64,000 nt of DNA from an uncultured Granulosicoccaceae bacterium (GCA_937925815.1 CALAMQ010000004.1:7099-71098), one strand, 5' to 3'. Positions 3,628 through 14,690 are shown, counted from the stretch's first letter. Translations and numbers: made by a program. Notes: generated from the sequence alone by a model not told the origin.

Positions 3628-5058
3628 ATGCATCAAAGCGGAAAACACTTGTACGAACAAGTGGCAGAAGTAGTGGGAAATATGGTGCAACAAGGCACCC
3701 TGAGACCCGGCGAAAAAGTGCCGTCACTGCGCGCCCTGAGCCGCAAGATGAAAGTCAGCGTGGCAACCGTCATGCAAGCCTATCTGCTGCTGGAAAACCG
3801 TGGCTTAATTGAATCCCGCCCTCAGTCAGGGTTCTACGTCAAAGTCAGCCGAGAGCGTCTGCCGGCGCCACGACGCAAACGCAACCGCAGTCAGACGCCG
3901 CGCAAGGTGCAGTTCGGCAACACCGTCGAGACCATTTTTGCACTGGCAAACCGGCCAGAAGTGGTACCGCTCGGGGTCGCCAACCCATCGCCTGCCCTAC
4001 TGCCCTTACCCGCACTCAATCGCGCCGTGCGCGATGTCATGTCGCGCGAGAGCGCGCACGCGGTGAGTTATGACTTCCCACCCGGCGTGCCGGAGCTTCG
4101 GCGTCAGATCGCGCTGCGCAGCGCTGATATCGGCGTGGACGTCAACCCAGAAAACGTCTTGATCACCAACGGCGCAACCGAAGGATTGATGATCGCGTTG
4201 CAGAGCGTTGCCAAGGCCGGCGATGTGATCGCGGTTGCGGCGCCTGCGTACTTCACGCTGCTGCAAATGATCGAGCGACTCGGGATGCTGGTGGTGGAGG
4301 TTGAGTCGGATCCGGACACCGGAATTGATCTCGACGCGCTCGCAAGCTGGCTCGGTCGGCAGCCCATCGCAGCGGTGGTGGTGTGGGCCAACTTCGCCAA
4401 CCCCACCGGCGCGCTGATGTCGGACGAGAACAAGTCCGAATTGGTCTCGCTGTGCAACCGCCACCGCATCCCGCTGATAGAAGATGATGTCATGGGCGAT
4501 CTACCGTTCAACGGTGAACGCCCGCGCAATTGCAAAGCCTTTGACACGCGCGACACCGTGATAACAGTGTCGTCATTTTCCAAGACCCTGGCGCCGGGCT
4601 ACCGAGTTGGCTGGACGCTGGGCGGCAGTTACCACGCGCGCATGATGCAGCAGAAACAGCTCAACAGCTCGGCCACCAGCAGTCTGTCGCAGCTCGCCCT
4701 CGCGCGCTTCCTCAAAGACGGTCACTACGACCGGCACTTGGTACGCCTGCGCCGCGCCTATCAACAACAGGTGCAGCAGTTGCGTTTTGGTATCGCCGAA
4801 CACTTCCCGCCTGGCACCCGGGTGTCCGATCCACGCGGCGGCTTTGTGGTCTGGGTTGAGTTGCCCGCACAGATAGATTCACAACAGGTTTACGAGAAAG
4901 CACTCAAGGCCGGTATCAGCGTGACGCCGGGTCTGCTGTTTTCTTCCACTGGCCGCTACAACAACTGTTTGCGGCTGTGTGCAGGCCACCCTTGGAACGA
5001 CACCATGCAACGCGCGACAGCCACACTGGGCCAGATCGTCACACAGCTCGCGCGCTGA
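3628..5058 (+). CDS. MocR/GabR-family transcriptional regulator (GntR-type wHTH fused to a class-I aminotransferase-like domain)
   Basis: N-terminal GntR HTH (PGEKVPSLRALSRKMKVSVATVMQAY) and a C-terminal fold-type I PLP domain (SFSKTLAPGYRVGW); 476 aa. Confidence 0.85.
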   Translation: MHQSGKHLYEQVAEVVGNMVQQGTLRPGEKVPSLRALSRKMKVSVATVMQAYLLLENRGLIESRPQSGFYVKVSRERLPAPRRKRNRSQTPRKVQFGNTVETIFALANRPEVVPLGVANPSPALLPLPALNRAVRDVMSRESAHAVSYDFPPGVPELRRQIALRSADIGVDVNPENVLITNGATEGLMIALQSVAKAGDVIAVAAPAYFTLLQMIERLGMLVVEVESDPDTGIDLDALASWLGRQPIAAVVVWANFANPTGALMSDENKSELVSLCNRHRIPLIEDDVMGDLPFNGERPRNCKAFDTRDTVITVSSFSKTLAPGYRVGWTLGGSYHARMMQQKQLNSSATSSLSQLALARFLKDGHYDRHLVRLRRAYQQQVQQLRFGIAEHFPPGTRVSDPRGGFVVWVELPAQIDSQQVYEKALKAGISVTPGLLFSSTGRYNNCLRLCAGHPWNDTMQRATATLGQIVTQLAR

Positions 5059-5269
5059 GCACCGCACCACAGAATTCCAGCCACGCAAGAGACCACACCA
5101 ACCGCCTAACGCCAGAAAAAATGGGTTAGTCGTGGCGCACACAGACCTCAATCAGCCGCAGCGGAGATCACGCCAACCCGATCATCAAACAGGGGCGCTC
5201 TCCGCTGGTGCTCGGCGGTCAGTGAACTGATAGCATCGCCGCATTGAAATCACACCGGACTGCCTGACA

Positions 5270-6430
5270 GTGGACTTCACCTCCGAGATCGATCGCCAAC
5301 GCACTGATAGCGTGAAGTGGCGGCTGTACAAAGACCGCGACATCATCCCTCTGTGGGTGGCTGATATGGACTTCAAGACAGCGCCCGAGGTTATCGCCGC
5401 GGTTCAGGCGCGCGTGGAGCACGGCATCTACGGCTACGCCGATGCAACCGAATCCGTGGTTGAGGCAACGCTGTCCCATTTACGCGAGAGCTACCAGTGG
5501 GAAGTCGATCCTGACTGGCTGGTGTGGCTGCCCGGCGTGGTGCCGGGCTTGGCGATGGCCTGCCGAAGTTGCGCCAACCCCGGTGAGAAAGTGATCGTGT
5601 CGTCGCCGGTTTACTACCCCTTTCTGATAGTGCCCGACGTGGCGGACCGCCAAGTGTTCGATGTGCCGCTGCAACGCGTTGACGGGCGCTGGCAATACGA
5701 CCTTGATGCGTTAGAACTTGCCGCCCAAGACCCAGCTGCAACCATGATCATCCTGTGCTCACCGCACAACCCAGTCGGGCGGCTGTTTACACCACAAGAG
5801 CTCCAAGCAGTGGTTGAGATCGCAGTGCGCAATGGTTTGACTGTTGTCTCCGATGAGATCCACGACGGCATTGTGTTGGAGCCGGGCTTGCGTTTCACGC
5901 CGACAGCCTGCGCCGCGCCCGAGCACGCCGCCGGCATGATCACGTTGATGAGTCCGAGCAAGGCCTTCAATCTCGCGGGCCTGAACGCAACCTACGCCAT
6001 CATCCCGAACGCCGATACCCGCGCCACCTTCAAGCACCACATGATGGGCCCGGTCACGCGGCCAAGCCCATTTGCGCTCGCAGCCACCGAAGCCGCCTAC
6101 GCCCACGGCGGCCCGTGGCTTGCCGGCCTGAACGACACCCTACGCGCCAACCGCGACCGCTTGATCTCAGCGGTCAACGCCCTGCCCGGCGTTCACATGG
6201 ATCCAATTGAAGCCACTTACCTCGGCTGGATTGATGTGAGTGCGCTGCGCTTGAACGACGCGCCGGGTTGGTTTGAAGACCGGGGCCTTGGCTTTTCCCC
6301 TGGCGCACCGTTTGGCGACGACCGCTTTGTGCGCTGGAATTTCGGTTGCCCGCCGGCCACCTTGGAGCGCGCCATTGCGCGTTTCGAGACGGCCGTCAGT
6401 GAGCGCGCACACGAACTGGGTATCAGCTAA
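5270..6430 (+). CDS. PatB/MalY-type PLP-dependent C-S lyase (cystathionine beta-lyase-like aminotransferase class I/II)
   Basis: N-terminal IDRQRTDSVKWR...LWVADMDFKTAPEV motif typical of MalY/PatB; PLP lysine in MSPSKAFNLAG; 386 aa; GTG start. Confidence 0.8.
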   Translation: MDFTSEIDRQRTDSVKWRLYKDRDIIPLWVADMDFKTAPEVIAAVQARVEHGIYGYADATESVVEATLSHLRESYQWEVDPDWLVWLPGVVPGLAMACRSCANPGEKVIVSSPVYYPFLIVPDVADRQVFDVPLQRVDGRWQYDLDALELAAQDPAATMIILCSPHNPVGRLFTPQELQAVVEIAVRNGLTVVSDEIHDGIVLEPGLRFTPTACAAPEHAAGMITLMSPSKAFNLAGLNATYAIIPNADTRATFKHHMMGPVTRPSPFALAATEAAYAHGGPWLAGLNDTLRANRDRLISAVNALPGVHMDPIEATYLGWIDVSALRLNDAPGWFEDRGLGFSPGAPFGDDRFVRWNFGCPPATLERAIARFETAVSERAHELGIS

Positions 6431-6452
6431 GCCGCCCAGAACACCCCGCCCG

Positions 6453-7016
6453 TCACTCACTTAAAGGCAACGCTTCCACACCCTTGAGCGCGGCCTGACC
6501 GGACGCACTGACATTGATGACCGCAACCCCGCCCAAGCGAAGCCTGCGCTCGAGTCGCAGTGCCTCGGCCTTGGGCGCAAAGTAGGCCTCAATGTGCGGG
6601 ATCGACACCACTGCGCCGCTTCGCCTTGCACGACCAAAGCGCACAACGCGCGCTCGCACGTACAACCCGTCTGCCGGCGGGATCAAGGACGCGGCGGACC
6701 AGTGATGCAAACCCTGCTCAGTCGGCGTGAGGTGCAAATAGACGCGCTCACCGTGGCGCAATGCCGAGCGATCACCTGCAAAGTTCTCAAAGGCGTCGTC
6801 AGTGTCATACCGCAAGATCGCGTAATTGCCGCGAAAGAGTGAACGCGGGTCAACCGGCACTGTCGCGACCCTCACGGTGGTGCCATGAAACAGCGGCCAA
6901 GCGGCACGCACTTGCATTGCAACCAACACCGAGACCTGAAAGACAAGCGCTGCCAGCAATCCTGTCTGCACTGCTCGTCGGGACAGCGGCAACCGCAACC
7001 GCTCAAGCGCGCTCAC
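6453..7016 (-). CDS. GDYXXLXY domain-containing protein (N-terminal TM anchor)
   Basis: One N-terminal TM helix followed by FRGNYAILRYD (GDYxxLxY-like motif); 187 aa. Its start overlaps the stop of the upstream membrane protein gene. Confidence 0.6.
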   Translation of the reverse strand: MSALERLRLPLSRRAVQTGLLAALVFQVSVLVAMQVRAAWPLFHGTTVRVATVPVDPRSLFRGNYAILRYDTDDAFENFAGDRSALRHGERVYLHLTPTEQGLHHWSAASLIPPADGLYVRARVVRFGRARRSGAVVSIPHIEAYFAPKAEALRLERRLRLGGVAVINVSASGQAALKGVEALPLSE

Positions 7017-8398
7017 GCCTGACTCCCCGCCGCGTGCCGACGCTGCCAGTACCGCGCGGCCCCGAGCAGCACCACAGCGATCACCACAAAGAGCACAGCG
7101 GTGCCAACGTAGTCACCGATCAAGTCGATATAGCGCAACAACGCAAGCAACAGTACCGTCGCGACGCCGAGAAAATAGGACTGCGACTCGCCGTGCTGCA
7201 CACCGCGCACAATCAGCCCCAGACCAAAACAGGCCACCGTGAGGTTGGCGAGCACTTGCCAGTAAATGGCGTGCTCGATGTTGTCACCGTTGGCAACTGC
7301 CGCAGTCACTACAAAGAGCGCAATGCAAAGCGCAAGAACTGGCAACAGCTTGCGCGCTCGCCAGGCGCACACGAGCGCGCCGCCACACACCACACAGAGT
7401 ACGGCCCACATATCCTGTTGCTCGGTCCAATGAGCCTTCAGAGCCGCCACCCAGACGTCGTTGTAGCTCAGGATAAAAGCACACACCAGCGCAAATCGCA
7501 GTGTCCACAACGAGAGCACCGTGCCGTAGTCACGCGCCTTGGTCGATGGCTGCGCGTACAACAGATGGCTGAGCGCGTAAGCGAGGATGAAATAGCCCAC
7601 GCCGACGGGAAATTGCTCGGCGCGAAATCGCATGACGAGAGCCTGATTCGACCACCAGACGCCAAGCGCGACCTCCAGCAACAACCCCGTTCCCGCCACC
7701 ACCAACAGAAACAGCAGAACGCTACGCCGCCCGGCGTATAGGACGTAGCCACCGAGCGCGAGAAAAAACGCCAAACCTGGCGCAAAGAACCCGAGCTGCA
7801 ATTCGATCAGAAACCACACTAGCGCCAGCAGCACGCTCAGCAACGCCAGCACTGGGCTCTGTAACAGCAGCGCCGCCGGCGCGGTGCCAAGCGCCCACCA
7901 GAGAACGCCGTCAGGCATGTGTTCACCGAGGTGGTAAATTTGCGCAATCAGGATGATTGACGCGCCGTATGCCAAGCCGCCAAGAAAAAACACACCCTCA
8001 GCCGCACGGTCGCGTTCACCGCGGTAGAGCCACAATGCGTAGCCGTTGAGCACGGCAGTCAAGCCAACGAGCGACCCCATGCGCAGCGCGCGCGGCAGGT
8101 TGTCCCAATTGGCGCTGAGCAATGTGATTAATGCCAGGCCCAAAAAGGCGTAACCGAGCACCACCAACACACGCTGCCCCCGAGCACCGCGCGCGGCGGC
8201 GTCGTAGTCAGCGCCGTAGAGCGCGCAAATCGACTCGGCCTGCGAACGGGAGATCAGCCCCTGCTCAACCCACGTTGCGCTCTCTTGGGCGAGGTCGTTC
8301 TTAAGAAGTCGTATCAAACGCATGGTGCCGTGTCCCGCGAATAATCCAGTGCGGCTTGCCTCCATTCCCAGGACTGAGCACCCTGTGACAAGGTGCAC
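7013..8398 (-). CDS. polytopic inner-membrane protein, DUF2157/DUF4401-like (partner of the GDYXXLXY protein)
   Basis: 461-aa ORF with a soluble N-terminal region of about 70 aa and then at least 10 hydrophobic helices. The start is uncertain: GTG at 8398, or an ATG about 75 nt downstream near 8321-8323 (MRLIRLLKNDL). Confidence 0.55.
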   Translation of the reverse strand: MHLVTGCSVLGMEASRTGLFAGHGTMRLIRLLKNDLAQESATWVEQGLISRSQAESICALYGADYDAAARGARGQRVLVVLGYAFLGLALITLLSANWDNLPRALRMGSLVGLTAVLNGYALWLYRGERDRAAEGVFFLGGLAYGASIILIAQIYHLGEHMPDGVLWWALGTAPAALLLQSPVLALLSVLLALVWFLIELQLGFFAPGLAFFLALGGYVLYAGRRSVLLFLLVVAGTGLLLEVALGVWWSNQALVMRFRAEQFPVGVGYFILAYALSHLLYAQPSTKARDYGTVLSLWTLRFALVCAFILSYNDVWVAALKAHWTEQQDMWAVLCVVCGGALVCAWRARKLLPVLALCIALFVVTAAVANGDNIEHAIYWQVLANLTVACFGLGLIVRGVQHGESQSYFLGVATVLLLALLRYIDLIGDYVGTAVLFVVIAVVLLGAARYWQRRHAAGSQA

Positions 8399-10517: not shown

Positions 10518-11429
10518 ATGTCTGACCATCCCCTGACCCCAGAAATTCCGCAAGCGCTGTTTGCCAATTGGCGCGAACGCCTGCCTGACTTCATTCGGCT
10601 GACCCGTTTGAACCGGCCAATCGGGGTATTACTGCTTGCGTGGTCAATGTACTGGGGCTTGTGGCTAGGTGCGGGCGGCTGGCCCGGAATCAAGCTTGTA
10701 GTGGTTTTCACGGTGGGTTGCATCCTCACGCGCTCGGCCGGCTGTTGCATCAATGACTACGCCGACCGCCACTTCGACGGCTTCGTGGCGCGCACCACAG
10801 ACCGCCCGATCGCTTCCGGGCGGGTATTGCCAGCAGAAGCGTTGTGGCTCGCCGGCGGGCTGACCGCGCTCGCAGCGGTTTTGCTGCTGTTCACCAACGC
10901 GCTGACGCTCTGGCTCGCGGTGCTCGCGGCCGTCCTCGCTGCCGCCTACCCCTTCTGCAAACGGGTGACGCACTTGCCGCAGATCGTGCTCGGCGCGGCC
11001 TTCGGCATGAGCATCCCGATGGCCTTTGCCGCCACCAGCGGCAGCGTGCCACCGCTTGGCTGGGCGGTGTTTCTGATTTCCTTGATCTGGTCGACGGCCT
11101 ACGACACCGAGTACGCCATGACCGACCGCGATGACGACCTCAAGATCGGCGTCAAGTCCACTGCCATCTTGCTTGGCCGCTTTGATGTCGCGGCGGTCGC
11201 GATCATGCTGCTCGCGGTGTTGCTCGGCCTCGCTGCAGTCGGTGCGCAGTTGCAATTTGGGTTTGCGTGGTGGCTCGGCCTCACAGGCGCCGCCGCCTCG
11301 GCGGGCTACCAAATCTGGCTGATCCGGGCGCGCGATCCCGCCAATTGCTTCCGCGCCTTTTTACACAACCACTATTTCGGCATGTCGGTGTTTGCCGGCC
11401 TGTTCGCCGAATACGCGCTGGCGAGCTGA
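10518..11429 (+). CDS. ubiA: 4-hydroxybenzoate octaprenyltransferase
   Basis: UbiA prenyltransferase motifs (NDYADRHFDG, second Asp-rich YDTEYAMTDRDDD); 303 aa; polytopic. Confidence 0.9.
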   Translation: MSDHPLTPEIPQALFANWRERLPDFIRLTRLNRPIGVLLLAWSMYWGLWLGAGGWPGIKLVVVFTVGCILTRSAGCCINDYADRHFDGFVARTTDRPIASGRVLPAEALWLAGGLTALAAVLLLFTNALTLWLAVLAAVLAAAYPFCKRVTHLPQIVLGAAFGMSIPMAFAATSGSVPPLGWAVFLISLIWSTAYDTEYAMTDRDDDLKIGVKSTAILLGRFDVAAVAIMLLAVLLGLAAVGAQLQFGFAWWLGLTGAAASAGYQIWLIRARDPANCFRAFLHNHYFGMSVFAGLFAEYALAS

Positions 11430-11433
11430 TCAC

Positions 11434-13128
11434 GTGACACCGTTCGATGCACTCGAGAGCTTGATCCGCGCACACGCGCAGGCCCACGAAGACGATGCCC
11501 CGCCTTCACTGCAACTCGCGTTGAGCGCCCTGCACAAAGCGCAGTGGTCTGAGCAAGAACCTGAACACGCGCGCCAAGTGGTGGTGTTTGGGCCGACGCA
11601 GTCGGGCAAGAGCACCGCAGTCAATCTGTTGCTCGGCACCGAGGCGGCTGGGGTCTCGGCGCTCGCGGGACACACGGTGCACGCCCAAGCCTTTCTGCAA
11701 GGCCACGACAACACCGCGCCACTAGAACCTTTTTTCAATGGTTACCGCGCAAGTTCCCTCGACGCCTTGTCCGACTCGACACTCAAACAGTGGTCCGCAG
11801 CGACAGTCACCGCCAGCGACACCGTGCAAACGGTGTGGGACACACCCGACTTCGACTCCCTGCGCGCGGCGGAGTACCTCGACGCCGTGGCCCGAAGCCT
11901 CGGGCTCGCCGACGTGCTGGTGCTCATGGTCAGCAAAGACAAGTACGCCGACCACAGTGTCTGGCAGTGGCTTGACCTGATCGCACCCTTGGGCAAACCC
12001 ACCGTCTTGTGCGTGAACAAAGTTGACGAGGCCAGTCGCGAGGTGGTCATCGCGGCGCTGCTCGAGCGCCTTGCCAACCACCCCATCTCAGCGGAGCAAC
12101 CCGCAGTCTGCGTGATGCCTTGGTTCGATGCCGCAGACGGACCGCCAGATCTCGAAGTGACCGCACTCCGCCACGCCGTGGACGACGCGACCGCGAGGCT
12201 TGAACGCCGTGATCAAGGCGCCCAAGCAAGCGCGCTCATCGCAGCACACTGGCCGAGCTGGACCGCGCCACTGCGCGCTGAAATTGACGCGCACAATCAA
12301 TTTGAACAGGGTCTGCAATCCGCCAGCGAGGCGATGCTGCAAAGCTACCGCGCCGAGTTCCTCGACCACCCAGAGCACTATGAGACTTTCCAGCACAGCC
12401 TCGCCGAAATGCTGCAACTGCTCGAACTGCCCGGCCTCGCGGGCGCGCTGGGGTACACGCGGCGCATCGTGACCTGGCCCGTGCGCACGGTCTTCGGTCT
12501 CGGCGCACGCGCCGCCGGTGCCAAAAAGCCTGAGAGCTTTGAAGCCGAACTATTACAAGACCGGCACAGCGAAGCGCTGTCTGGATTGATCGAGCAAGCG
12601 CTGACTGAGGCGAGCGCCAACGGACCGAGCGCTGCGTGGTGGCGCGCCGCGGCAACCGCCATGCGCGCCAACCGCACCGCGTGGGAGAGCGCATTCGAAA
12701 ACGATGTCACCGACTACAGACGCGACTTTGAGCCCGAGATTCGACACGCCGCAGAGCAACTCTACGCGGGCTTGCAAGAACAGCCCGCCATCCTCAACAG
12801 CCTGCGCGCGGCCCGTTTCACAGCTGACGCGGCCGGGGTTGCGTTTGCGGTCAAAACAGGCGGCGTTGGCATCGCCGATCTCGCGATTGCGCCGGCCATG
12901 CTCTCGGTCACGACACTTCTGACCGAGAGCGCACTTGGCAAATACATTGATACGGTGATGGCGGACTTGCGCAAGAAACAGTACGAGACTGTACAGGGGC
13001 GTTTGGTTAACGGCGGCTTTCGCGGTCAGCTTACCGCCACACTTGGCGAGCTCAACGCACCCGGCCTCTACCGCATCAGCCAACACGAACTCGGCGACAT
13101 TGGCGACGCACTCGGACAGCCTCAATGA
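11434..13128 (+). CDS. large P-loop GTPase of unknown function (paralog A of a tandem pair)
   Basis: G1 GPTQSGKST, atypical G3 WDTPDFD, G4 NKVD. The C-terminal 350 aa or so are helical with no recognisable domain. The start is uncertain: GTG at 11434, 4 nt after the ubiA stop, or the ATG at 11392 inside ubiA as given by the ORF track. Its stop overlaps the start of the next GTPase. Confidence 0.6.
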   Translation: MTPFDALESLIRAHAQAHEDDAPPSLQLALSALHKAQWSEQEPEHARQVVVFGPTQSGKSTAVNLLLGTEAAGVSALAGHTVHAQAFLQGHDNTAPLEPFFNGYRASSLDALSDSTLKQWSAATVTASDTVQTVWDTPDFDSLRAAEYLDAVARSLGLADVLVLMVSKDKYADHSVWQWLDLIAPLGKPTVLCVNKVDEASREVVIAALLERLANHPISAEQPAVCVMPWFDAADGPPDLEVTALRHAVDDATARLERRDQGAQASALIAAHWPSWTAPLRAEIDAHNQFEQGLQSASEAMLQSYRAEFLDHPEHYETFQHSLAEMLQLLELPGLAGALGYTRRIVTWPVRTVFGLGARAAGAKKPESFEAELLQDRHSEALSGLIEQALTEASANGPSAAWWRAAATAMRANRTAWESAFENDVTDYRRDFEPEIRHAAEQLYAGLQEQPAILNSLRAARFTADAAGVAFAVKTGGVGIADLAIAPAMLSVTTLLTESALGKYIDTVMADLRKKQYETVQGRLVNGGFRGQLTATLGELNAPGLYRISQHELGDIGDALGQPQ

Positions 13129-14690
13129 GCAATCACCTCGACACACTTGATGCGTTGAATGCCTGGGCCACTGGCGCACAGCAAGCCGGCTGGCTGGACA
13201 ACCAGCGACGCGAAGCCATCGCCGCACACCGCCCGCACGATCCAACCCAACTCTTCGCAAGCGGTGAGACAGCCCCGCTGGTGTTGGCGTTTTTTGGCGG
13301 TACCGGGGTTGGCAAAAGCAGCTTGCTCAACCGCCTCGCGGGCAGCGACGTTGCAAAAAGCGGCGTGGTGCGCCCGACCTCGCGGGAAGTGACCTTGTAT
13401 CTGCACGAGGACGTCGAACTTGCTTCACTGCCAGCAGAGTTGCCAGTTGAGCACACGCGCATCCAACGCCACGCCGTGGACGCGCACCGAGACGCTCTGT
13501 GGATCGACACACCAGACATTGATTCGGTGGTCACAACCCACCGCGACCAAGTCATGGCCTGGATGCCGTACATCGACTTACTGGTGTATGTGGTCTCACC
13601 TGAGCGCTACCGCGATGACGCCGGCTGGGACTTACTGCAACAACACCGCAAGCGCCACGACTGGGCTTTTGTGATCAATCACTGGGACCGCGGCGACCCA
13701 GCGCAGCGCGAGGACTTCATCGCGTTGTTGCGCGCCGGCGGCATCGACGACCCCGCCGTGTTTTGCACCGATTGCCGTGACGGCGGGTCACCGACAGACG
13801 ACTTCGAGCGCCTGCAAGCGCACGTCGCCGCCAGCAGTGAAGCGCTCGCCATTGCCGAGGCCCGCCAGCGCGGCGCTGCGACCGAACGCGCCGCACTTAC
13901 CGCACTGATTGAAAGCGCAACCGATGCACTCGGACACGACACGGCCTGGTCTGAGATTGACGCCACAATCGAATCTCAATTGACCGGTCTCGCGCAGCAC
14001 CTTGAATCCGACACGCACAGCAGCCGCGCAGCTGTGCACAGCCGGCTTTTCCCAGCGCCAGAGCCACCGTTTTGGCGTCGCGTGCTCGGCGCGCGCGAAC
14101 ACCCCAAGGCACCACCGGTCGACATCGAGGTCTGGACCGCACGCGGCGATGACCGCTTGATTGGCGCACTCGATAACCTGCTGATCGCAGCCGACGACGC
14201 GGCACTGCCGACCACACCGCTCCGGCAAGTCTTGACCCTCAAATCGTTGCACCCGGACGCCACAGTCAACGGCGCCTGCTCCGACGCACTGCACGCGGCG
14301 CTCGAAACCCCCGGCACCGCACTGCAACGCGGCGTACACCGGATGGCTCGGCTGCTCGCTATCGCACTGCCACTGATGGTGCTGCTGTGGGTCGGCCAGC
14401 GGGTGTTGCAGGGATTCCTCGCTGGCGCGAGCGACCCCACGCAATACATTGGCCTCAATTTCCTGACCAACAGCCTGATGTTGCTGGTCTTGAGCGCACT
14501 GCTGCCGGCTGCACTCGCCGAGTGGCTCAGGCCCTCGCAACGCGCGGCCTGCGCCACGGCGCTGCGAGAAGGGCTCAGGCAGGGTTGCATAACGCTCACT
14601 GCCACCGCACGGCATGAGCTCAGTGTTCTCAAAGGTTCGCGCGACAAATTATTGTCGTCGCTTAGAGCGATTGCCACCCGCCTCGACTGA
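13125..14690 (+). CDS. large P-loop GTPase with C-terminal membrane hairpin (paralog B of the tandem pair)
   Basis: G1 GGTGVGKSS, atypical G3 WIDTPDID, G4-like NHWD. Two predicted C-terminal TM helices (LLAIALPLMVLLWVGQRVL, LNFLTNSLMLLVLSALLPAALA); 521 aa; ATGA overlap with gene A. Confidence 0.6.
   Translation: MSNHLDTLDALNAWATGAQQAGWLDNQRREAIAAHRPHDPTQLFASGETAPLVLAFFGGTGVGKSSLLNRLAGSDVAKSGVVRPTSREVTLYLHEDVELASLPAELPVEHTRIQRHAVDAHRDALWIDTPDIDSVVTTHRDQVMAWMPYIDLLVYVVSPERYRDDAGWDLLQQHRKRHDWAFVINHWDRGDPAQREDFIALLRAGGIDDPAVFCTDCRDGGSPTDDFERLQAHVAASSEALAIAEARQRGAATERAALTALIESATDALGHDTAWSEIDATIESQLTGLAQHLESDTHSSRAAVHSRLFPAPEPPFWRRVLGAREHPKAPPVDIEVWTARGDDRLIGALDNLLIAADDAALPTTPLRQVLTLKSLHPDATVNGACSDALHAALETPGTALQRGVHRMARLLAIALPLMVLLWVGQRVLQGFLAGASDPTQYIGLNFLTNSLMLLVLSALLPAALAEWLRPSQRAACATALREGLRQGCITLTATARHELSVLKGSRDKLLSSLRAIATRLD

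Follow-up and report, generated by a model that had tools for sequence, protein, structure and literature searches.

Introduction

Bacterial dynamin-like proteins (DLPs) combine a G domain with neck or trunk helices and a membrane-engaging tip. According to a published account, the genes of bacterial DLPs mostly occur as operon pairs, and their products act as heterotypic oligomers, as exemplified by Campylobacter DLP1/DLP2, a heterotypic oligomer that tethers membranes (PMC6104087). C. jejuni DLP1/DLP2, Nostoc BDLP and, in the form of a fused pair, Bacillus DynA belong to this group of adjacent paralogous genes. The cellular roles of bacterial DLPs are mostly unknown. Here, we describe two adjacent paralogous genes, termed A and B, in a 64,000-nucleotide stretch of DNA from an uncultured Granulosicoccaceae bacterium (GCA_937925815.1, CALAMQ010000004.1:7099-71098), which is referred to as the window in the following and from whose first letter all window positions are counted. 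On the basis of predicted structures, sequence matches, gene pairing and membrane features, we consider it probable, with a rough probability of 0.65, that A and B encode both subunits of a compact, membrane-remodelling bacterial system that is heterotypic, dynamin-like and of the BDLP/mitofusin class.

A and B share their general architecture and the arrangement of their genes with the operon-paired bacterial DLPs, which are moreover among their top structural matches. In contrast to A and B, these DLPs are about 600-700 aa or longer and possess larger G domains, and, unlike B, they bind membranes by means of a paddle and not by a full transmembrane hairpin. The sequence similarity between these DLPs and A/B is confined to the level of weak profile matches. 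As far as is known, operon-paired bacterial DLPs carry a canonical DxxG motif. The second group to be considered are mitofusin and Fzo1, along with the cyanobacterial and chloroplast Fzl proteins, whose domain order is that of B, i.e. an N-terminal helix, the G domain, a helical bundle, a two-helix membrane hairpin and a returning C-terminal helix. Mitofusin and Fzo1 occur in eukaryotes, have a length of 740-860 aa and carry a canonical DSPG sequence at G3; the sequence identity amounts to 11-14%, and A/B, unlike them, constitute a two-gene heterotypic bacterial module.

A further candidate relative by description is TbMfnL of Trypanosoma brucei (Q57XN3). In a preprint, it is presented as a protein of about 62 kDa, in which the G domain is followed by two consecutive C-proximal transmembrane helices that are predicted to act as a loop anchor (bioRxiv 10.1101/2023.06.28.546890). 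Compared by description only, the MfnL family and B agree in architecture, in size (about 60 kDa) and in the taxa concerned (the Planctomycetes-Verrucomicrobia-Chlamydiae (PVC) group and Proteobacteria). In contrast to A/B, the G1-G4 motifs of MfnL are described as conserved, and an upstream paralogue is not mentioned in the accessible part of the same preprint (bioRxiv 10.1101/2023.06.28.546890). None of the bacterial MfnL accessions listed in the preprint was found in 20 B-family clusters. Judged from these descriptions, B, or the A/B pair, may represent the bacterial side of the MfnL family.

Results

To place A and B structurally, monomer models of both proteins computed with AlphaFold (AF2) were used, both of which are confident. 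The model of B (predicted local distance difference test score (pLDDT) 87.6, predicted template-modelling score (pTM) 0.75) begins with two helices at the N-terminus. A G domain of about 170 residues comes next, and after it a helical bundle (residues 227-394), two long hydrophobic helices (399-434 and 444-467) and a C-terminal helix of 50 residues. The model of A (pLDDT 86.3, pTM 0.82) likewise starts with N-terminal helices, which are followed by a G domain of about 180 residues and by very long helices (258-310, 400-448 and 500-538); where the chain turns from the second to the third of these, it forms a conserved helical hairpin (451-498). In both models the G domain, which extends from about residue 45 to 230 in A and from about 50 to 225 in B, is of the size found in Era. 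The predicted arrangement corresponds to that of the dynamin superfamily in two respects: the G domain is flanked by an N-terminal helix and by post-G/C-terminal neck/HB1 helices, and the far end of the trunk bears a predicted membrane-engaging element, namely the hydrophobic hairpin in B and a conserved, weakly hydrophobic one in A.

A Foldseek search of the Protein Data Bank (PDB) with the B model returned dynamin-superfamily chains exclusively on ranks 1 to 42, the first plain GTPase (EngB) being found on rank 43. The matches include BDLP (2j69; 1.1e-11), IniA (2.4e-10), Cj-DLP1/2, MFN1/2, OPA1, Drp1, Fzo1 and EHD proteins, with Cj-DLP2 aligned over 402 residues. For A, the structure-search scores were 17.3 for Fzo1, 16.8 for IniA, 16.3 for EHD4 and 15.9 for MFN2. 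The template-modelling scores (TM-scores) of the structure search, 0.27-0.44, are low, which is what one would expect if proteins with several hinges are captured in differing conformations. The suggestion made in a preliminary description of the sequence that A and B form a bacterial dynamin-like pair thus holds at the level of the fold, and membership of both proteins in the dynamin superfamily is supported by the fold together with weak profile matches.

Both proteins belong to large families, with more than 800 database homologues for A and more than 1,400 for B. A profile search with B yielded 433 clusters (50% identity) at E <= 1e-30 and 2,594 clusters at E <= 1e-10, and in a scan of one genome per species a relative of B was detected in at least 584 species-level genomes. 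The best 80 of these genomes belong to the Gammaproteobacteria (Methylococcales, Granulosicoccaceae, Chromatiales, Sedimenticolaceae, Arenicellales and tubeworm endosymbionts) and to the Planctomycetota (Phycisphaerae and Planctomycetales); Burkholderiales are added by named database matches. A profile-profile comparison with hhalign (98.9% probability, E 1.7e-17) aligns A and B over 252 columns comprising the N-terminal helices and the G domain and shows the two GTPase-fold proteins to be paralogues; their C-terminal halves have diverged. Across Gammaproteobacteria and Planctomycetota, and whatever the neighbouring genes, tblastn places A directly before B in the same orientation in about 76 of 82 loci; contig ends account for three of the six loci in which this is not the case. 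The two genes are tightly coupled: in 55 of 58 loci, the stop of A overlaps the start of B or is at most 3 nt away from it. A/B hence show what characterises operon-paired heterotypic DLPs, i.e. two adjacent, co-oriented and conserved paralogous DLP genes.

Several individual loci depart from this arrangement. In some Granulosicoccaceae a cobT gene (CobT plus a CobT_C VWA domain) of opposite orientation separates A from B or lies immediately 5' of B (L038 4115-5911, L041 3994-5886, and L044), so that the pair is not always contiguous; in L041 no A was detected within the 6-kb flank. Two contigs of uncultured Methylococcaceae contain B without A in the upstream flank (L020, B at 5965-7629; L028, B at 4224-5867). 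Upstream of B, the former carries ffh, coaX and an ORF (open reading frame) of 246 aa, which was considered as a relative of A and rejected as unrelated by hhalign; the latter shows about 1.3 kb without an ORF of at least 150 aa. One further locus (L019; NZ_CP194902.1, Methylocaldum sp. GT1BB) lies on a 5.3-Mb record that is labelled as a plasmid and is probably a mislabelled chromosome.

The nucleotide-binding motifs of the window (Table 1) were all checked by translation; G3 was counted over 120 homologues per family, and invariant residues were taken from alignments of 48-50 diverse members. Instead of the DxxG glycine both proteins possess an aspartate, and the resulting DxPDxDS sequence is kept in 118 of 120 homologues of A and in 117 of 120 homologues of B. 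The degenerate G3 motif already noticed in the window sequence is therefore real and under selection in both proteins. According to the alignments, the P-loop is invariant, as are the switch I threonine (in SxLAGxT in A and RPTS in B), the G3 motif itself (WDxPDFDS in A, WxDxPDxDS in B) and an acidic motif that follows G3 (SKDKYAD in A, SPERYRDD in B). In the model of B, the G3 motif is found directly after strand beta-3 (124-128) and before the switch II helix (137-149), which indicates that DxPDxDS fills the DxxG position. To our knowledge, every characterised bacterial dynamin-like protein has a canonical DxxG switch II.

The G1 and G4 motifs that had been assigned to the two proteins are all present in the window; with regard to the family, however, the assignment has to be restricted, as the Asp of the NKxD motif of A is shared by only 50 of 118 members. 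Hereby, the guanine-specifying Asp of G4 is absent in 68 of 118 homologues of A and kept in B (117/117). Since this residue is retained in B and missing in more than half of the A homologues, the pair is probably asymmetric, with B as a GTP-specific anchor and A as a partner with relaxed or altered nucleotide specificity. In this respect the EHD ATPases are relevant, which have a dynamin-like fold and use an adenine nucleotide, because A often lacks the guanine-specifying Asp; these ATPases are eukaryotic, possess EH domains and have no transmembrane hairpin. From the invariance of DxPDxDS in both subunits we infer that gamma-phosphate sensing and catalysis must differ from those of canonical dynamins. 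Combined with the fact that most A sequences have lost the Asp of G4, this invariance argues for an altered, asymmetric catalytic cycle.

Hydropathy analysis of B revealed two hydrophobic segments (residues 403-433 and 441-470) with Kyte-Doolittle (KD) maxima of about 2.0. Exactly two such segments are present in 173 of 200 B-family members, separated by a loop with a median length of 10 residues. On average, the B-family hairpin carries 3.3 and 3.6 Lys and Arg residues per 15-residue flank compared to about one in the loop, an enrichment that speaks for a hairpin whose two termini are cytoplasmic. The preliminary description had B anchored in the membrane by, and ending in, a two-helix hairpin; the former is retained as a prediction, whereas the latter does not apply, as the hairpin is followed by a helix of about 50 residues (472-520). 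In A, the hydrophobicity of the corresponding hairpin is borderline (KD 1.45-1.8), with the threshold being reached in 87 of 118 members. Based on the model, residues 451-502 of A are a candidate paddle or a candidate partner of the B hairpin. The two stretches of A that are modelled with low confidence (335-359 and 467-488) belong to the best conserved parts of the protein, a pattern that fits an ordering of these stretches only in the presence of a partner or a membrane; residues 335-359 may thus constitute a partner or membrane contact.

In a single protein of 990 aa (P0452), a bacterial solute-binding-protein domain (SBP_bac_1, 2e-10) comes after a full B-type sequence (residues 6-550). 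This case may be a gene-call fusion and was not used; its periplasmic domain, if real, would conflict with the predicted topology of B.

The locus itself corresponds to what had been reported for it, i.e. a coupled ORF pair between ubiA and comF, and the coordinates, the ATGA overlap and the 4-nt distance to ubiA were all confirmed. Read from its first TTG, the ORF of A covers 11392-13128; homologues support the GTG at 11434 as the start, which gives 564 aa, and a database protein of 564 aa matches A from this GTG with 100% identity over 100% of its length. The TGA stop codon of ubiA (11427-11429) is followed by four nucleotides (TCAC) and then by the GTG of A (TGATCACGTG). The promoter/terminator scan showed no terminator-like site at the ubiA-A and A-B junctions, with the total number of sites being no higher than in shuffled sequence. 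The upstream neighbour of A is a UbiA-family prenyltransferase (Pfam 6e-64), while B is flanked on its 3' side by a convergent gene on the opposite strand that encodes a ComF-like double-zinc-ribbon/phosphoribosyltransferase protein; glutathione-reductase-like (gor), NUDIX, OmpA-like and RadC genes are the other neighbours of the pair in the window. The order ubiA-A-B-comF with gor, NUDIX, OmpA-like and radC genes recurs only in Granulosicoccaceae-like loci (L009, L011, L038, L044, L052 and L061), and the neighbours differ elsewhere; this gene order, too, makes it probable that the window derives from a relative of this family. Hence, a general link of the pair to ubiA has to be abandoned, and a common transcript of ubiA, A and B is probable in the Granulosicoccaceae-like lineage only. 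Clustering of all flank ORFs of the 82 loci provided no universally conserved third gene and yielded only lineage-specific neighbours.

Table 1. Positions of the A/B genes, their motifs and predicted structural elements in the 64,000-nt window.
Feature	Position	Strand	Basis
Gene A, soluble or peripheral dynamin-like paralogue, 564 aa	11434..13128	+	ORF list, homologues, model
Gene B, membrane-anchored dynamin/mitofusin-like paralogue, 521 aa (anchor predicted)	13125..14690	+	ORF list, homologues, model
A/B junction, ATGA, stop of A overlaps start of B, translational coupling	13125..13128	+	sequence
A G1/P-loop, GPTQSGKST; GPTQxGKS invariant in A family	11590..11616	+	translation, alignment
A G3/switch II, WDTPDFDS; Asp139 in place of DxxG glycine	11836..11859	+	118/120 homologues
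A G4, NKVD; N and K invariant, Asp in 50/118 homologues	12016..12027	+	translation, alignment
A 335-359, TRxxxTWPxR, invariant R343/T347/W348/P349; candidate interface	12436..12510	+	alignment, pLDDT <50
A 451-502, conserved glycine-containing, weakly hydrophobic helical hairpin at tip of bundle	12784..12939	+	alignment, model, hydropathy
B G1/P-loop, GGTGVGKS	13296..13319	+	117/120 homologues
B G3/switch II, WIDTPDIDS; Asp131 in place of DxxG glycine	13500..13526	+	117/120 homologues
B G4, NHWD	13677..13688	+	NxWD in 117/117 members with recognisable motif
B 403-470, two hydrophobic helices with short loop, predicted transmembrane hairpin, both ends cytoplasmic	14331..14534	+	hydropathy, model
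B C-terminal long helix, ~472-520, returns towards bundle as mitofusin HR2	14538..14687	+	model
ubiA, 4-hydroxybenzoate polyprenyltransferase family; context, outside conserved module	10518..11429	+	Pfam

Among the lineage-specific neighbours, an ORF of about 143 aa, lipoprotein-like and without a Pfam match, is located divergently upstream of A in 26 Methylococcales loci (L014, 3712-4158, minus strand, and 25 others); pabB-like genes are also found near the pair in Methylococcales loci. In Planctomycetota, genes for a PglD-like acetyltransferase, a Poly_export/SLBB protein and an exosortase (EpsH, 1e-49) are found on the 3' side of the pair, as is a conserved ORF without a Pfam match; this polysaccharide-export/exosortase stretch covers 7823-12402 in L012 and has equivalents in L013, L015, L039, L054, L059 and L081. 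The window itself contains another coupled pair on the minus strand (6453-8398), just upstream of the NUDIX and gor genes. Its two genes, which overlap by 4 nt, code for a member of the GDYXXLXY family (187 aa, Pfam 2e-25) and for a membrane protein of the DUF2157 type (461 aa, 7.5e-38).

Discussion

The following sequence of events could account for a membrane-remodelling function of A and B as a heterotypic dynamin-like system. B is predicted to insert into the cytoplasmic membrane via its C-proximal two-helix hairpin, with the G domain, the bundle and the C-terminal helix facing the cytoplasm. Translational coupling would provide A in a fixed proportion to B; A has the same predicted G domain and neck and, at the position of the transmembrane hairpin of B, its weakly hydrophobic conserved helical hairpin. 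For the subsequent steps we infer that nucleotide binding would lead to dimerisation of the G domains of A and B, either in cis or across two membrane surfaces. A hinge motion of the helical bundles could then result in membrane tethering, bending, fusion or resealing, as in the case of Campylobacter DLP1/DLP2, DynA and the mitofusins. Hereby, the hairpin of A might dip into the bilayer like the paddle of BDLP or pack against the hairpin of B.

At the sequence level, Pfam Dynamin_N (PF00350) matches are precomputed on most homologues of both families, and the best NCBIfam model for B is that of Bacillus DynA (residues 114-297, 2e-8), compared to Der for A (3.5e-9); all NCBIfam matches of A and B remain far under every equivalog cutoff. 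Consistent with the initial analysis, no Pfam match was found in the remaining 300-350 aa of either protein.

Several observations weigh against a dynamin-like system. The enlarged G domain of 250-300 aa with the typical dynamin insertions is not present, as the G domains of A and B comprise about 170-180 aa. In the window proteins, the Dynamin_N match is borderline in B (27.8 bits at a cutoff of 27.0, profile positions 1-45 only) and below the threshold in A (15.3 bits), and MMR_HSR1 fits at least as well (29 bits for A and 23.7 bits for B at a cutoff of 21.9). Sequence searches against the PDB, carried out with single sequences as well as with profiles, returned only P-loop, Era or Der fragments. 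The hairpin of A and its segment 335-359 are modelled with low confidence. Furthermore, judged from the motif alone, the loss of the G3 glycine may entail weak or no hydrolysis. The preliminary impression that the G domains are of Era/EngA rather than of dynamin type is borne out with respect to their size and to MMR_HSR1 as the best Pfam match of A. As neither an enlarged G domain nor, among the canonical G1-G4 motifs, a DxxG was found in A or B, the pair is set apart from ordinary members of the dynamin superfamily.

The main mechanistic rival starts from this last point. Here, A and B would have a dynamin-like architecture and yet be pseudo-GTPases that bind nucleotide constitutively or never, and would serve as an inert, static scaffold or organiser of membrane domains. 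It can be argued that the G3 glycine, which is normally needed for the movement of switch II, is replaced in both proteins, and a Gly-to-Ala exchange at this position blocks switching in Ras and G-alpha proteins; the loss of the guanine-specifying Asp in the majority of A homologues described above points in the same direction. However, the P-loop Lys and Ser, the switch I Thr and the G3 Asp that coordinates the Mg-bound water are all invariant, and so is, across two phyla, DxPDxDS itself. Taken together, these invariant residues are more easily reconciled with an active site that is altered and still works than with one in decay, which makes the pseudo-GTPase explanation unlikely.

A defence module of the LeoA/LeoBC ('Dynamins') type, directed against phages or serving membrane surveillance, had been brought up in the first description of the locus; we consider it improbable that the pair represents one. 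leoABC of enterotoxigenic Escherichia coli is a three-gene cluster on a pathogenicity island (PMC4159319). LeoA, LeoB and LeoC, which PADLOC and DefenseFinder list as 'Dynamins', resemble A/B as a multi-gene bacterial dynamin-like cluster, and LeoA is the best PADLOC match of both proteins (A 7.8e-9, residues 134-227; B 7.3e-8, residues 47-99), with LeoBC in addition matching B (0.0015). Moreover, some bacterial DLPs are reported to be protective against phage and pore-forming agents in the discussion of the MfnL preprint (bioRxiv 10.1101/2023.06.28.546890). The PADLOC matches are, however, weak and limited to parts of the G domain, and a full-length match in a defence or island context was not obtained. 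Instead, the neighbours of the pair in the window are housekeeping genes (gor, NUDIX, ubiA, comF, OmpA-like and radC), and the gene order around it is kept across Granulosicoccaceae-like genomes, as predicted for vertical inheritance. In addition, no relative was detected in 2.9 million viral contigs, and no defence or mobile-element genes recur beside the pair among the flank ORFs of the loci. A role in phage defence is therefore not upheld.

An identity of A and B with ordinary GTPases of ribosome assembly (Era/Der/YihA type), named beforehand as the outcome that would speak against a dynamin-like pair, appears very improbable. With Era, Der and EngB, i.e. the TrmE-Era-EngA-YihA-septin-like GTPases, both proteins share the size of the G domain, the spacing of the G motifs, a hydrophobic residue after G3 and the MMR_HSR1 matches above threshold, and the best PDB sequence matches of A are Der and Era (E 1e-7 to 1e-6). 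In contrast to these GTPases, the NCBIfam scores of A and B lie far below the equivalog cutoffs (A: 36.2 vs 306.7 for Der and 27.3 vs 237 for Era; B: <=14 bits), and Pfam identified no KH or other RNA-binding domain, in place of which a helical bundle of 300-350 residues is present. Moreover, B contains a conserved predicted transmembrane hairpin, and the structure searches put dynamin-superfamily proteins first. On these grounds the Era/Der/YihA identity was rejected. Hardly credible, finally, is the kinship with the proteobacterial DUF2868/GTPase-DUF3482 gene pair that had also been suggested, as the resemblance is only a general one (neighbouring genes with a GTPase and a membrane element among their products), neither protein has a Pfam match to DUF2868 or DUF3482 even at E <= 1, which refutes the relationship at the sequence level, and both partners of A/B are GTPase-fold paralogues, which DUF2868 proteins are not known to be.

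Conclusions

A heterotypic dynamin-like system of the BDLP/mitofusin class thus represents our preferred explanation of A and B, which combine a mitofusin-like plan with an Era-sized G domain and an altered catalytic motif in both subunits. Beyond this, we tentatively put forward the possibility that the pair forms a separate, ancient branch of the dynamin superfamily, consisting of obligate 'mini-mitofusin' pairs with a DxPDxDS switch II, of which one subunit would have drifted away from guanine specificity, and with B possibly being the bacterial counterpart of MfnL. If such a branch exists, its way of sensing the gamma-phosphate or of catalysis would be one that has not been described among dynamin-like proteins. 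Should B indeed be the counterpart of MfnL, the bacterial pair would provide a tractable model for the matrix-side membrane-shaping machinery, with A as an extra partner subunit that is unmentioned in the accessible part of the MfnL preprint (bioRxiv 10.1101/2023.06.28.546890), and the relationship would bear on the origin of a eukaryotic mitochondrial inner-membrane shaper. The A/B module is widespread and uncharacterised, and its hosts include methanotrophs, sulfur-oxidising symbionts and planctomycetes. As a compact system, it may indicate what the minimum for heterotypic dynamin-type membrane work is and whether or not the G3 glycine is dispensable for it.

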